From positions 20,277-84,276 of the forward strand of contig JASFKR010000001.1 in the NCBI GenBank assembly GCA_050118535.1: 64,000 bases of DNA, in the 5' to 3' direction. Made by a program: the position numbers and the translations under genes. Positions 55,694 through 60,802 of the stretch are shown here, one piece after another. Under the pieces are notes generated by a model that did no database searches, was not told the DNA's origin, and was given only the letters and a program-made list of their open reading frames with translations. Position 1 is the stretch's first letter; each line of letters opens with the position of its first letter. Source of the stretch: Myxococcales bacterium. GTDB lineage: Bacteria; Myxococcota_A; Polyangia; Polyangiales; JAFGIB01.

Positions 55694-58600
55694 TCACTGG
55701 ATGCCATACTGCTGAAGCCGACGGTAGAAGGTGCGCCTCGGCATTCCCAGCGAGCGGGCGGCTTGCGCTCGGTTCCAGGCGTGATCCTCGAGCGCGGCCA
55801 GGATGCGCTGCCGCTCCGCATCCTTGTATTGGTCGCGATTGGCCGGTGGGTTACGCACAGACATGGGTTCAAGTACCGCACCGTCGGTCGCACCCGCGGG
55901 CGCGGCGACCTCGACTGCGCCCCGTCCTCCCGACGGCTCGTCCACCGCACCGCGCGTGGCTTGCGGCACCGCGATCGGCGCCCCCGACACACTCAGATCC
56001 GAAGCCCCGATCACGGTCCCGTCCACCATCACCCAGGCCTGCAACAACATGTGCTCGAGTTGCCGCACGTTGCCCGGCAGCGACTGCGCCATGATGCACT
56101 CCATGGCGTCACCGGACAGGCGTTTGGCGGGCTGCCCATCGCGCTCCGCAAAGGTGTCGAGGAAGTGCTGGCAAAGCAGCGGAATGTCCTCGCGCCGGTC
56201 CCGCAGCGCCGGGAGGGAGACCTCCACGACGTTGAGTCGGTAGTAGAGATCCTCCCGGAACTCTCCGCGTCCCACCAGCTCGTCGAGCCGCTTGTTGGAG
56301 GCGGCCAGGAAGCGCACGTCGACGCGCTCTTCCTGATCGCCGCCGACCTTGCACACCGTGCCCTCCTGCAGCACGCGCAGCAGGTCGACCTGCATCTTGG
56401 CCGGCATGTCCCCCACCTCGTCGAGGAAGAGCGTGCCGCCCGAGGCGCGCGAGATGAGCCCGCGCTTGTCCCGATCGGCGCCGCTGAACGCACCCTTCAC
56501 ATGACCGAAGAGCTCGCTCTCGAGCAGCGACTCCGGGACGCTGCCGCAGTTGATGGCCACGAACGGCGCCTTGGCGCGCCGCCCGCCGTAGTGGACCGCC
56601 CGCGCGACCAGCTCCTTGCCGGTGCCGCTCTCGCCGTGGATCACCACCGGCACGGCAGCATCCTTGAGACGGTCGATGGTGTCGAAGACGCGCAGCATGG
56701 CCTGGCTCTTGCCCACCATGCCGTGCCGGATGGCCGCGTCCCGCCGCGAGCGCCGCGCGCGCGTCAGCTCGCGCCTGGCCTCTTCGAGCTCGTCGGTGCG
56801 CGCCGACAGCAGCTCCTCCACGTCCTGCTTGGCCTTCTCGAGGGCGGCGTTGGCCACTTCGAGCTCCTCGCGCCGGCGCACGTTCTCCGCCATCAGGCGT
56901 GCGTTCTGCAACGCGATGGCGGCCTGGTCGGCGAACGCCGCCAGCAGGTCCATGGAGGCCTCCGTGAAGCGCCCACGGCTGCGGCGGTGCTCCAGGTAGA
57001 GCACGCCCACCGTTCCCTCGGGGCTGCGGATGGGCATGCAGGCCACCGAGCGCAACATCAGCTTGTGCACGGAGACGAACTCGCTGAGCCGGCCATCGGC
57101 GCTGGCGTCGGTGGTGACGATGGGCTCACCGTCGATCAACACGGCCTCTGCGATGGAGCGGCTGAAGGCCTCGTGGGGGTCGGGCGCCGCCCGCTTGGCC
57201 ACCTGCACGGTGCGCTTTTCGAGCTGCCCCTGTCGGTCGGTCAAGAGCACGAAGCCGCGCTCGGCGCCGGAGAGGTCGACGGCGCTCTCGGTGATGCGCT
57301 CGAGCAGCCGGTCCAGGTCGTGCTCCCCGGCCAGGCGCTTCATGATTTCCAACAGCCGCTCCGCCCGCGGATCACCGATCAGGGCGCTCATCTCGCCGGA
57401 CGGCTGCGCGTGGTGCGAGCTGTCCTCGGCCTGGGCCGCCCGCTCGCGCACCATCCGCCGCCGCTGGTCATGCCAGAAGGCGTCGCGGTGCTCGCGCGGC
57501 ACCCGCAGGGCGATGTCCTCCAGCACCTCCACGGCCATCCGCCTGTGTCGCCGCGCGGCAAACTCCGCACCGAGCGCCTCGTGACACAGGCCCATGGCCG
57601 CCAGCGCCGACCACTCCACGTCGCGCTTGTGGGCCTTGCGCGCCCGCTCCAGGACGTCTTCCAGCCCGGGCAACGCCCCCTCCGGGTCGCCAGACGTCAG
57701 CATTGCCCGCGCCAGCAGCAGGTCGAGCGTGAGCTTCAGGTCATCCAGGTCGTGGCGCTCGATGGCCTCGCGCGCCGTCGCCAGGCGCGCGGCGGCGGCG
57801 GAGGCATCCGCGGGCCCCGCCCGGTCGAGCAGCGCCTCGGCCGCGTCCAGGTTGTGGTCGGCCACCTCGCGCTTCTGTCCCAGCTCCGCGTAGCGAGCCA
57901 GGGCGTCGTCGTAGTGGATCAGCGCCTGTTCCACGTCCCCCATGCGCGCGGCCAGCTCGCCCAGCAGCGCCGTCGCCTGGGCCTCCACGTAGCGCTGCCC
58001 GTCCCGCCTGGCGCCGCCGAGCACATCGGCGATTTCGGAGCGCGCGCGCTCGAACAGCCCGAAGTAGATGTGAACGTGGGCCAGGTTGCAGCGCGCCTGG
58101 GCCACGGTCGAAAGTCGCCCCGCACGCCGCGCCAGCCGCGCCGCGCTCTCGTAGTGCTCGGCGGCCGCCGCCGGGTCTCCCAGGAAGAACATCAACGCGC
58201 CCAGGTTGAGCGCGGAGTTGGCCATCGACGCCACGTCCCCCAGGCGCCGGTAGATCTCGAGCGACTGGGCAAACATGTCCCGGGCCGACACCAGATCGCC
58301 GGTGCGGAAATGGGCCACCGCCAGGGTCGCCCGCGCCGTGGCCTCGTCCCGGGGTGAGCCCGCCGCCCGGGCCAGCGCGACCGCCTCCTCGAGGGCCGCG
58401 CGCGCCGCATCGTGCTCCCCCCGGAAGCTCGCCGCCATGGCCCGCGAGGCGAGCAGCTCGGCTCGCACCAGCGACTCGGGCTCGAGCGCCAGCCCGGCCT
58501 CGGCCGCCTCGGTCAGGGCGTCGTAGTCGCCGCGACGCAGGTGGACCTTGGCGAGCTCGCGCAGCATCCGGGCCCGCGCGGAGCGCTCGGCGTCCCCCGG

Positions 58601-60802: not shown

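Follow-up and report, generated by a model that had tools for sequence, protein, structure and literature searches.

Introduction

Enhancer-binding proteins, the activators of sigma54 transcription, are controlled at ring assembly, and the characterised modes of control involve receiver, PAS, GAF or V4R domains or an anti-activator; STAND proteins are controlled at multimerisation. Activators of the NtrC1/DctD type are held inactive by a coiled-coil linker. Myxobacteria carry dozens of Ser/Thr-kinase and sigma54-activator regulators each, and in Myxococcus xanthus the two kinds of regulator are reportedly connected in trans: work by Jelsbak, Givskov and Kaiser from 2005 is said to have linked Ser/Thr kinases to a group of enhancer-binding proteins through a phosphothreonine-binding FHA domain. 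Here we describe a gene in which a Ser/Thr kinase, a predicted STAND module and a complete sigma54 activator form a single polypeptide, referred to below as the regulator. It lies in a stretch of 64,000 nucleotides from a Myxococcales bacterium (contig JASFKR010000001.1, positions 20,277 to 84,276), which we call the window and to which all positions refer unless a locus is named.

STAND proteins switch between a closed, ADP-bound and an open, ATP-bound form, and multimerise when driven by an inducer. Their nucleotide-binding oligomerisation domain (NOD) consists of a nucleotide-binding domain (NBD), a helical domain and a winged-helix domain, together with an arm and a repeat sensor (PMC4381067, PMC6468293). 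PknK of Mycobacterium tuberculosis is a kinase-bearing member of the MalT group of STAND ATPases (PMC4381067, PMC6468293). In the activator NorR, the GAF domain represses the AAA+ domain (PMC2941729).

Results

Domain architecture of the regulator

The regulator gene occupies positions 55694..60802 on the minus strand and encodes 1702 amino acids in one uninterrupted open reading frame (ORF), from an ATG start to a stop codon. The protein is identical to NCBI MGD8858412.1, recorded as 'MAG: sigma 54-interacting transcriptional regulator [Myxococcales bacterium]' (MAG, metagenome-assembled genome). Its GC content at the three codon positions (0.79/0.50/0.92) is like that of other genes in the window, which has ~70% GC. 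A preliminary description of the region, made from the DNA sequence, had read the gene as a single 1702-codon frame, and the intact minus-strand ORF with its coding-like GC content bears this out.

Pfam matches given here score over the curated cut-offs unless marked otherwise, and all features of the gene lie on the minus strand. The protein begins with a Hanks-type Ser/Thr kinase domain (residues 5-245; 60068..60790; Pkinase PF00069, E-value 2e-29, 103 bits against a cut-off of 31.7). Next comes a predicted STAND NOD (residues ~280-582; 59057..59965), assigned from AAA_16 (residues 279-420, 6e-13, 50.1 bits against a cut-off of 32.6), nSTAND6 and the structure model described below. An arm and TPR sensor region of ~27 predicted helices (residues 585-1130; 57413..59050) follows, in which TPR_12 matches five stretches (9e-23, 80.8 bits). 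The signals that bear on a relationship to the MalT clade are a marginal nSTAND6 match (28.2 bits against a cut-off of 27.7), a TPR_MalT match at residues 782-1061 that lies under its cut-off (32 bits against 45) and a weak NACHT signal; nSTAND6, NACHT and a further signal, AAA_22, are all weaker than AAA_16.

The C-terminal part starts with a GAF domain (residues 1160-1299; 56906..57325; 2e-17). A helical, coiled-coil linker (56723..56905), which is part of a predicted helix spanning residues 1281-1360, leads from there to the sigma54-interaction AAA+ core and lid (residues 1362-1604; 55991..56719). The core matches Sigma54_activat PF00158 (residues 1362-1528, 3e-67, 226 bits against a cut-off of 20.2) and the lid AAA_lid_14 (residues 1534-1604, 9e-20). 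After an Ala/Gly/Pro-rich linker of low model confidence (residues 1605-1660; 55823..55990), which is variable in length (57 residues here against a median of 32 in homologues), the chain ends in a Fis-type HTH_8 DNA-binding domain (residues 1661-1699; 55706..55822; 2e-14, 53.8 bits).

The motifs expected of each module are in place. The kinase has GRGAAGDV (12-19), VALK (32-35), HGDIKPGN (127-134) and DFG (147-149), and contains K35, E52, D129, N134, D147, T165 and the APE sequence at 170-172. Walker A (GPRGAGKS, 306-313) and Walker B (LVLLVDD, 394-400) motifs mark the STAND module. In the activator, we find GESGTGKE (1390-1397), GAFSGA (1437-1442), LFLDEVG (1458-1464), FREDLYYRLN (1515-1524) and the sensor II sequence GNVRQLE. 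The Pfam scan thus recovered every part of the domain order proposed in the preliminary description, and each motif quoted there lies where it had been placed. All tested defining features of enhancer-binding proteins, Hanks kinases and STAND ATPases are present, save that the kinase is not of the RD subclass.

Comparison with the NCBIfam models gave the best alignment with NifA over residues 1147-1702 (1e-111), while residues 3-259 align with PknB-type kinases. The score against the NifA equivalog TIGR01817 (374.4 bits) is below the cut-off of 528.85, and models of NtrC, ZraR and related proteins align only from about residue 1327 onwards, also below their cut-offs. Neither a Response_reg nor an FHA domain was matched in the regulator by Pfam. 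Because of the sub-cut-off NifA score and the lack of a receiver domain, we regard the protein as neither a NifA nor a PilR/NtrC. It is composed of 1130 N-terminal residues organised as a PknK-like STAND kinase and 570 C-terminal residues organised as a GAF-type enhancer-binding protein.

Conservation across homologues

At an E-value of 1e-20 or below, 367 relatives of the regulator were found among 5.8 billion proteins. Nearly all of the best 120 of these contain both Pkinase and Sigma54_activat, are 1500-1790 residues long and align end to end with the regulator at 29-69% identity. Counted as clusters at 90% identity, there are at least 115 full-length colinear homologues, which come from NCBI, JGI, ENA and Logan assemblies. 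Conservation was assessed in an alignment of 117 homologues of at least 1400 residues.

The kinase residues K35, E52, D129, N134, D147 and the APE sequence are kept across this alignment. The residue before the catalytic aspartate is a glycine (HGD) in the regulator and in 106 of the 117 homologues; with HGD in place of HRD, the kinase belongs to the non-RD subclass. Kinases of that subclass are usually not switched on via phosphorylation of the activation loop. In the STAND module, the two aspartates of Walker B are kept, and the Walker A position corresponding to K312, a lysine in the regulator, is occupied by lysine in 82 homologues and by arginine in 32. Walker A, Walker B, R-finger and sensor II of the activator are invariant or nearly so, as are the positions of the sigma54-contact loop GAF[T/S]GA other than the fourth, where 75 homologues have threonine and 42 serine. 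Since serine is found in so many relatives, GAFSGA is a normal variant of the family; serine at this position is tolerated in PspF.

The distances between the modules are also tightly kept. The TPR region has a median length of 547 residues (interquartile range 543-549), the TPR region and the GAF domain are 29-30 residues apart, and the kinase is separated from Walker A by ~60 residues. This conserved spacing, together with colinearity in more than 100 assemblies, argues that the modules act as one unit. Segment by segment, identity to the orthologue of locus L001 is highest in the GAF domain (77%); it is 63% in the TPR region and 44% in the NOD.

Five relatives (P0017, P0025, P0057, P0079 and P0097) appear to lack either the kinase or the activator, P0079 stopping inside the GAF domain and P0097 after the TPR region. 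We do not count them as separate architectures, as they are probably truncations or proteins with miscalled starts.

Predicted structures

When residues 255-1151 were searched by sequence against solved structures, only TPR proteins were found and nothing that corresponds to the NOD. Because the sequence search missed the NOD, we used an AlphaFold2 model and Foldseek for this part. Residues 262-1145 were modelled as a monomer from an alignment of nine sequences, with a mean pLDDT (predicted local distance difference test score) of 86.5. In the model, a beta-alpha P-loop domain has a strand (300-305) that runs into the Walker A loop and a second one (394-399) that carries Walker B. It is followed by a helical domain (residues 454-494; 193-233 in the numbering of the model), a winged helix (residues 528-582; 267-321 in the model) and ~27 paired helices that extend to residue 1130. 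The closest match in the Protein Data Bank is PH0952, a STAND-TPR protein (6MFV; E-value 7e-12, 682 aligned columns), ranked ahead of LGN/Pins-type TPR proteins and Avs3. The model thus predicts that the middle region is a STAND-type NOD with an arm and a repeat sensor.

Residues 1130-1702 were modelled in the same way (nine-sequence alignment, monomer; pLDDT 73.7). The predicted order is a GAF fold, an unbroken helix of ~80 residues (1281-1360), an AAA+ domain, a disordered linker and the HTH domain. The AAA+ domain resembles those of ZraR, FleQ, NtrC1 (1NY5, 1NY6) and NtrX in Foldseek (E-values 1e-23 to 1e-25). The structure prediction that had been suggested as a check on the preliminary description yields a STAND-type NOD, TPR helices, a GAF domain and a canonical activator AAA+ domain. 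The TPR-like repeats, put there at about 500 residues, correspond to ~545 residues of paired helices (585-1130) in the model.

The long helix between GAF and AAA+ domains varies in length in a regular manner. From the end of the GAF domain to Walker A of the activator there are 91 residues in 67 homologues, 90 in 18, 84 in 17 and 77 in 3. Leucine is the family residue at positions 1314, 1321, 1328, 1332, 1339 and 1346, of which 1328 is a valine in the regulator. Length steps of seven residues combined with leucine heptads are the signature of a coiled coil in which the register matters, and from this heptad-quantised linker we infer that the regulator may undergo a dimer-to-ring switch.

Proposed mechanism

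We hypothesize, with our confidence evenly divided for and against, that STAND-driven oligomerisation and gating by the GAF domain and coiled coil together control assembly of the activator ring, and that the kinase serves as a second input or output. The proposal is made by analogy with MalT and PH0952, with GAF-repressed activators (NorR) and with linker-held activators (NtrC1). At rest, the NOD would be closed on ADP, and a dimer formed by the GAF domain and the coiled coil would keep the AAA+ domains from forming a ring. A ligand or partner binding to the TPR sensor would open the NOD, allowing nucleotide exchange and multimerisation. Multimerisation would concentrate the C-terminal AAA+ domains, so that a hexameric ring could form on DNA bound by HTH_8 and remodel sigma54-RNA polymerase via the GAFSGA loop. 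Because the kinase is of the non-RD subclass, we propose that the clustered kinase domains would be activated by proximity rather than by activation-loop phosphorylation. The kinase might then phosphorylate the regulator itself, in the GAF domain or the linker, thereby licensing the ring, or it might act on separate substrates as a second output.

This hypothesis draws on the architecture, the conserved motifs and spacing, the predicted STAND fold and the heptad steps of the linker. The preliminary description had suggested that the sigma54 activator may be directly connected to kinase signalling and to an oligomerising NTPase/TPR scaffold; the conserved residues, the kept spacing and the STAND-type model fit that suggestion, which we carry forward as an inference.

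Four observations weigh against the proposed mechanism. Both structure models were built from nine-sequence alignments, and both are monomers. Arginine takes the place of the Walker A lysine in 32 of the 117 homologues, so that part of the family may handle nucleotides differently in the NOD, and such handling may not be essential in all members. The promoter scans described below yielded no sigma54 promoter or enhancer that can be assigned to the regulator. Finally, orthologues in the same genomic slot that lack the kinase and the NOD suggest that the activator core can work without a kinase/STAND module in cis.

Short-form orthologues and partner genes

Orthologous loci, labelled here with L numbers, were collected by looking up exact proteins and by scanning GTDB species genomes for peptide patterns, and were compared by tblastn. 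In L010, L012, L014, L017, L018 and L019, which belong to Sandaracinus, Polyangiaceae, Polyangiales, Sandaracinaceae and 'Deltaproteobacteria' MAGs, the slot of the regulator is taken by a form of ~820 residues, directly behind an orthologue of the kinase gene that lies upstream of the regulator in the window (below). L011 contains a similar short form, with no kinase match preceding it. The short form begins with ~300 residues whose homologous counterpart is the final ~200 residues of the TPR region, and continues with GAF, AAA+, lid and HTH_8 (for example L014:11381-13864 and L017:11253-13718). It has no kinase, no NOD and only a minor part of the TPR region, with ~820 against ~1700 residues; its GAF domain is 60-68% and its activator core 55-58% identical to those of the long form, and both forms occupy the same genomic slot. 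The gene order in L014 and L017 (upstream kinase, short regulator, small Cys-rich lipoprotein, HTH_3-pilMNOPQ) is as with the long form. In a rough neighbour-joining tree of the GAF-activator part, built with no support values, the short forms nest inside the long forms, which provisionally suggests that the kinase-STAND part was lost in the short forms.

The upstream partner in the window is a stand-alone soluble Ser/Thr kinase of the HRD type with an acidic tail, whose gene (62814..64000, minus strand) is cut by the window end. An orthologue of it adjoins the regulator gene in almost every locus with a long form and in six of the seven with a short form; L006/L013 have only a weak kinase match, 5 kb from the regulator gene. 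A gene for threonine ammonia-lyase (IlvA, single C-terminal domain type; 61592..62791, minus strand; TIGR01127, 459 bits against a cut-off of 379) lies between the two kinase genes in the window and in most long-form loci.

The second partner is found 20 bp past the regulator stop. Here, behind a GGAG sequence, a gene of 80 codons (55431..55673, minus strand) encodes a putative lipoprotein with a signal peptide, a lipobox cysteine and six conserved cysteines in the pattern C-x4-DC-x6-9-CG-x4-C-x4-CE...C, with no Pfam or NCBIfam family match. Orthologues lie directly 3' of the regulator gene in ten other loci, with long and with short forms. Examples, 66-80 residues long, are L001:15244-15465, L010:13800-14012, L012:13792-14004, L014:13932-14138, L017:13715-13915 and L003:15638-15850; in L001, L010, L012, L014 and L017 the gene overlaps the regulator stop or lies within 70 bp of it, and in the L001 record it is uncalled. 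A terminator-like GC hairpin (55353-55332) followed by a T-run (together 55322..55353, minus strand), the T-run being conserved in a four-locus alignment, ends the regulator-lipoprotein unit. The conserved unit is the upstream kinase, the regulator and the small Cys-rich lipoprotein, not the regulator and the pilus operon further downstream.

These findings bear on the main alternative to the proposed mechanism, in which the kinase-STAND-TPR part is a dispensable accessory. Control would then be exerted via the GAF domain and the upstream kinase acting in trans, and the fused kinase would mainly phosphorylate other proteins. The short forms agree with this, since they keep the last ~200 residues of the TPR region with the GAF-AAA+-HTH part and in six of seven cases stand directly behind the upstream kinase, the neighbour that long and short forms share most consistently. 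So does the fact that the GAF domain is the most conserved segment, well above the NOD. However, the catalytic residues of NOD and kinase and the spacings between modules are clearly constrained in the long forms, which is unexpected for a passenger module, and the TPR region is conserved above the NOD as well. We consider the alternative a possible but fairly unlikely one.

Sigma54 promoters and the pilus operon

In the window, the regulator gene is separated from the ammonia-lyase gene by a 790-bp spacer (60803-61591). It has no counterpart in the orthologous loci, in which only 23-60 bp lie between the end of the ammonia-lyase gene and the called regulator start, and it may be an insertion scar or a gene remnant. 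The spacer contains a 60-bp AT-rich stretch (~61175-61235) beside the hairpin CCCGCCCCATGGGGCGGG, an Asp/Ser-rich repeat (~61060-61130) and a plus-strand ORF of 81 codons (61322-61567).

A sigma54-like element had been proposed in this spacer, next to the regulator gene (TGGCACACTAGCGGC, 60866-60880, plus strand). The proposal does not hold: the element is without the TTGC of a -12 region, it lies inside the stretch missing from other loci, and it is a match at chance level, TGGCAC-N5-TTGC with up to two mismatches occurring 55 times in the window against 65.7 times expected by chance. A stricter scan anchored on GG and GC, covering the window from 45 kb onwards and seven loci, revealed nothing conserved near the regulator gene or pilM. 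No rpoN gene was found among ~45 ORFs scanned in the window.

Further upstream of the regulator, in a region past the window end at 64000, the related loci share a gene of 56-67 codons (MLPPFIIEQIR...RGVVIIDL; L004:6208-6445, L005:7284-7536, L001:7076-7279), 3-4 kb from the regulator gene. A sigma54 promoter without mismatches lies in front of it in L004 (TGGCACCTGGTTTGCA), and a site with one mismatch in L005. In L001, L007, L010, L012, L014 and L017 the site is poor or missing, so that it cannot be attributed to the regulator.

Downstream of the hairpin, a sigma70-type promoter (TTGACG-18-TAACAT; 55126..55155, minus strand) precedes an HTH_3 gene (54616-55071), which is followed by pilM, pilN, pilO, pilP and pilQ (the whole unit 49349..55071, minus strand) and, beyond pilQ in the order of transcription, by aroK-aroB. 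In an alignment of four loci, the region 5' of HTH_3 contains this promoter as a conserved feature (TTGCTTGACG...TAACAT) and no conserved GG-N10-GC element. A second conserved block lies ~100 bp upstream of the promoter (55241-55280, minus strand: TTGACAAT; GTTCCTTGACAATCGAGAGAA...GTGGCAACAGCC), is recognisable in L001, L003 and L005 too, and could be another promoter or a binding site for some regulatory protein. The gene for the pilus ATPase PilB (18642-20390, plus strand; TIGR02538, 793 bits), which has an N-terminal MshEN/c-di-GMP-binding motif (c-di-GMP, cyclic di-GMP), is 29 kb from pilMNOPQ and on the other strand, from which we conclude that the pilus genes are dispersed in the genome.

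The order upstream kinase, (ammonia-lyase), regulator, (opposite-strand LysM/M15 peptidase), HTH_3-pilMNOPQ-aroKB is complete in L001/L002, L005 and L007, and L008 and L009 have the same order as far as their short contigs reach. In L003, the pil genes come after an 8-kb insertion. No pil gene lies within 10 kb of the regulator in L004, and in L006/L013 pilM is 9 kb off, on the other side.

The position of the regulator raises the question of whether it serves as a sigma54 activator dedicated to the neighbouring type IV pilus operon. It shares the strand of the HTH_3-pilM unit and is located 620 bp upstream of it, and regulator and pilM are within 10 kb of each other in the window, L001/L002, L003, L005-L009, L014, L017 and L018, at 37-60% identity; L001, and no other locus, has a -24/-12 match with one mismatch (CGGCACCGCATTTGCA) just before the HTH_3 gene. 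However, the promoter common to the four aligned loci is of the sigma70 type, with no conserved -24/-12 element, the terminator-like hairpin intervenes, and in most loci an opposite-strand LysM/M15 peptidase gene does so too. Pil genes are missing from the vicinity of the regulator in L004, order or orientation is rearranged in L006, L011 and L018, and the synteny block extends to aroK-aroB downstream and to MoxR/DUF58 upstream, as in general vertical synteny. We therefore judge a dedicated role in pilus expression to be quite unlikely. The upstream, same-strand position relative to the pilus genes that had been pointed out in the preliminary description is correct, but the functional link is not borne out, as the lipoprotein gene, the hairpin and an HTH_3 gene with its own conserved sigma70-type promoter stand between. 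Regulator and pil genes co-occur within a long block of vertical synteny, and nothing shows that one controls the other; the targets of the regulator are probably not the adjacent pilMNOPQ promoters.

Other explanations for the fusion

A role in conflict, as an Avs-like anti-phage STAND sensor with the kinase and the AAA+ domain as effectors, could be suspected from the borderline nSTAND6 match and from the presence of Avs3 among the structural matches. The 25 families listed by PADLOC, however, are all generic kinase (PD-T4-6) or RtcR-type AAA+ matches, and none of them is a model of Avs or STAND defence. The chromosomal setting of the gene among housekeeping genes is stable across 37-69% identity, and the protein retains its full sigma54-contact loop as well as a domain for DNA binding. 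We regard such a role as highly improbable.

The chance that a missed stop codon or frameshift joined adjacent genes for a PknK-like kinase and a NifA-like activator is negligible, in spite of the origin of the window from a MAG and of truncated or split relatives in the databases (P0079, P0097), because 117 homologues from four independent sources (NCBI, JGI, ENA and Logan) are colinear over their whole length, the linker at the junction between TPR and GAF keeps its length of 29-30 residues and the coding composition is uniform along the ORF.

Distribution

The full-length relatives that bear an organism name all belong to uncultured Myxococcota (Myxococcales, Polyangiales, Sandaracinaceae) or to 'Delta-/Proteobacteria' MAGs, the taxon labels being those of the MAG records. 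There are two exceptions, namely a protein of 1715 residues from a Candidatus Eisenbacteria MAG, in which Pfam confirmed the complete architecture, and protein P0112 from a Candidatus Cryosericum MAG, which has the same domain set according to precomputed domains. According to the preliminary description, fusions of kinase and activator had been noted only in large myxobacterial genomes; the family is indeed found mostly in Myxococcota, but extends to these two other lineages. The scan of GTDB species genomes used two peptide patterns, and no cultured genera are among the matches listed, which does not exclude them. The family is an orthologous group passed on by vertical descent, and its carriers are for the most part uncultured Myxococcota.

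We found no published description of the kinase-activator fusion architecture in the open-access literature; surveys of the Sorangium genome and kinome reportedly list fusions of kinase and activator. The regulator is a member of an uncharacterised family that is known to databases under a generic name. What is new here is the non-RD nature of the kinase, the predicted NOD of NBD, helical and winged-helix domains, the heptad steps of the linker, the orthologues without kinase and STAND parts, and the conserved partner genes.

Other genes in the window

Several further genes of the window deserve mention. A protein of 535 residues (972-2579, minus strand) combines FHA, GAF and adenylate/guanylate cyclase domains and links Ser/Thr-phosphorylation signalling to second messengers. 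A UvrA-like protein of 1806 residues (25225-30645, minus strand) is about twice as long as a normal UvrA; it contains two domains for UvrA interaction and additional ABC ATPase modules, and its C-terminal part weakly matches DUF4350. After an S49 peptidase gene there is an ORF of ~1930 codons (~40990-46793, plus strand) with coding-like GC content, to which Pfam gives only a weak TPR_19 match. Neither Rfam families nor tRNAs were found in the 64-kb window.

Discussion

The hypothesis that we prefer, in which the STAND module and the GAF/coiled-coil gate together control ring assembly, can be extended to the partner genes. We speculate, as a tentative elaboration that we hold more doubtful than the hypothesis itself, that an 'apoptosome-like' STAND platform triggers the sigma54 ring, so that two oligomerising ATPases would work in series. 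The proximity-activated kinase would mark its own GAF/coiled-coil gate or partner proteins, and the upstream kinase and the presumably co-transcribed lipoprotein would complete the circuit. If true, enhancer-binding proteins would have a mode of control beyond those characterised so far.

A natural fusion of an enhancer-binding protein with a STAND module and a kinase lends itself to testing whether an oligomerisation switch is able to drive a second one, and also how phosphorylation of the eukaryote-like kind acts on sigma54 transcription in myxobacteria. The natural short forms without the kinase-STAND part provide a built-in comparison. Together with the partner genes they are experimental handles. 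The practical value of the family is limited for now, since all full-length members that bear an organism name are uncultured and the protein is already public under a generic name.

Among known systems, the regulator resembles a STAND protein of the MalT/PknK type to which an activator of the NifA/NorR type has been fused, if the analogies set out below are taken together. PknK stops after its repeat region and acts on separate proteins. Like PknK, the regulator starts with a Hanks kinase and continues with a P-loop NOD and a TPR sensor, and automatic naming at JGI labels many relatives of the regulator 'PknK'; this likeness is one of layout and not an assignment of orthology. Unlike PknK, the regulator continues into a complete GAF-sigma54 activator in the same chain, and its kinase is non-RD (HGD).

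MalT of Escherichia coli and PH0952 of Pyrococcus horikoshii also combine a NOD, an arm and a repeat sensor (TPR or SUPR) with a DNA-binding effector. Their effector is a simple HTH domain that works with sigma70 polymerase, whereas that of the regulator is predicted to be an oligomerising sigma54 AAA+ motor, with a kinase at the other end of the protein.

The C-terminal part has the same order of GAF, AAA+ and HTH_8 as NifA, NorR and FhlA. The regulator differs from these activators in its 1130 additional N-terminal residues and in the unusually long predicted helix of ~80 residues between GAF and AAA+ domains. A long helical linker directly before the AAA+ core is likewise present in activators of the NtrC1/DctD type, two structures of which (1NY5, 1NY6) are matched by the AAA+ domain of the regulator, but the regulatory domain in front of the linker is a GAF domain here and not a receiver. 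Finally, the regulator resembles the FHA-domain activators of M. xanthus in that Ser/Thr-kinase signalling is joined to sigma54 activators in myxobacteria. In contrast to these proteins it has no FHA domain, and its kinase is part of the activator chain itself.

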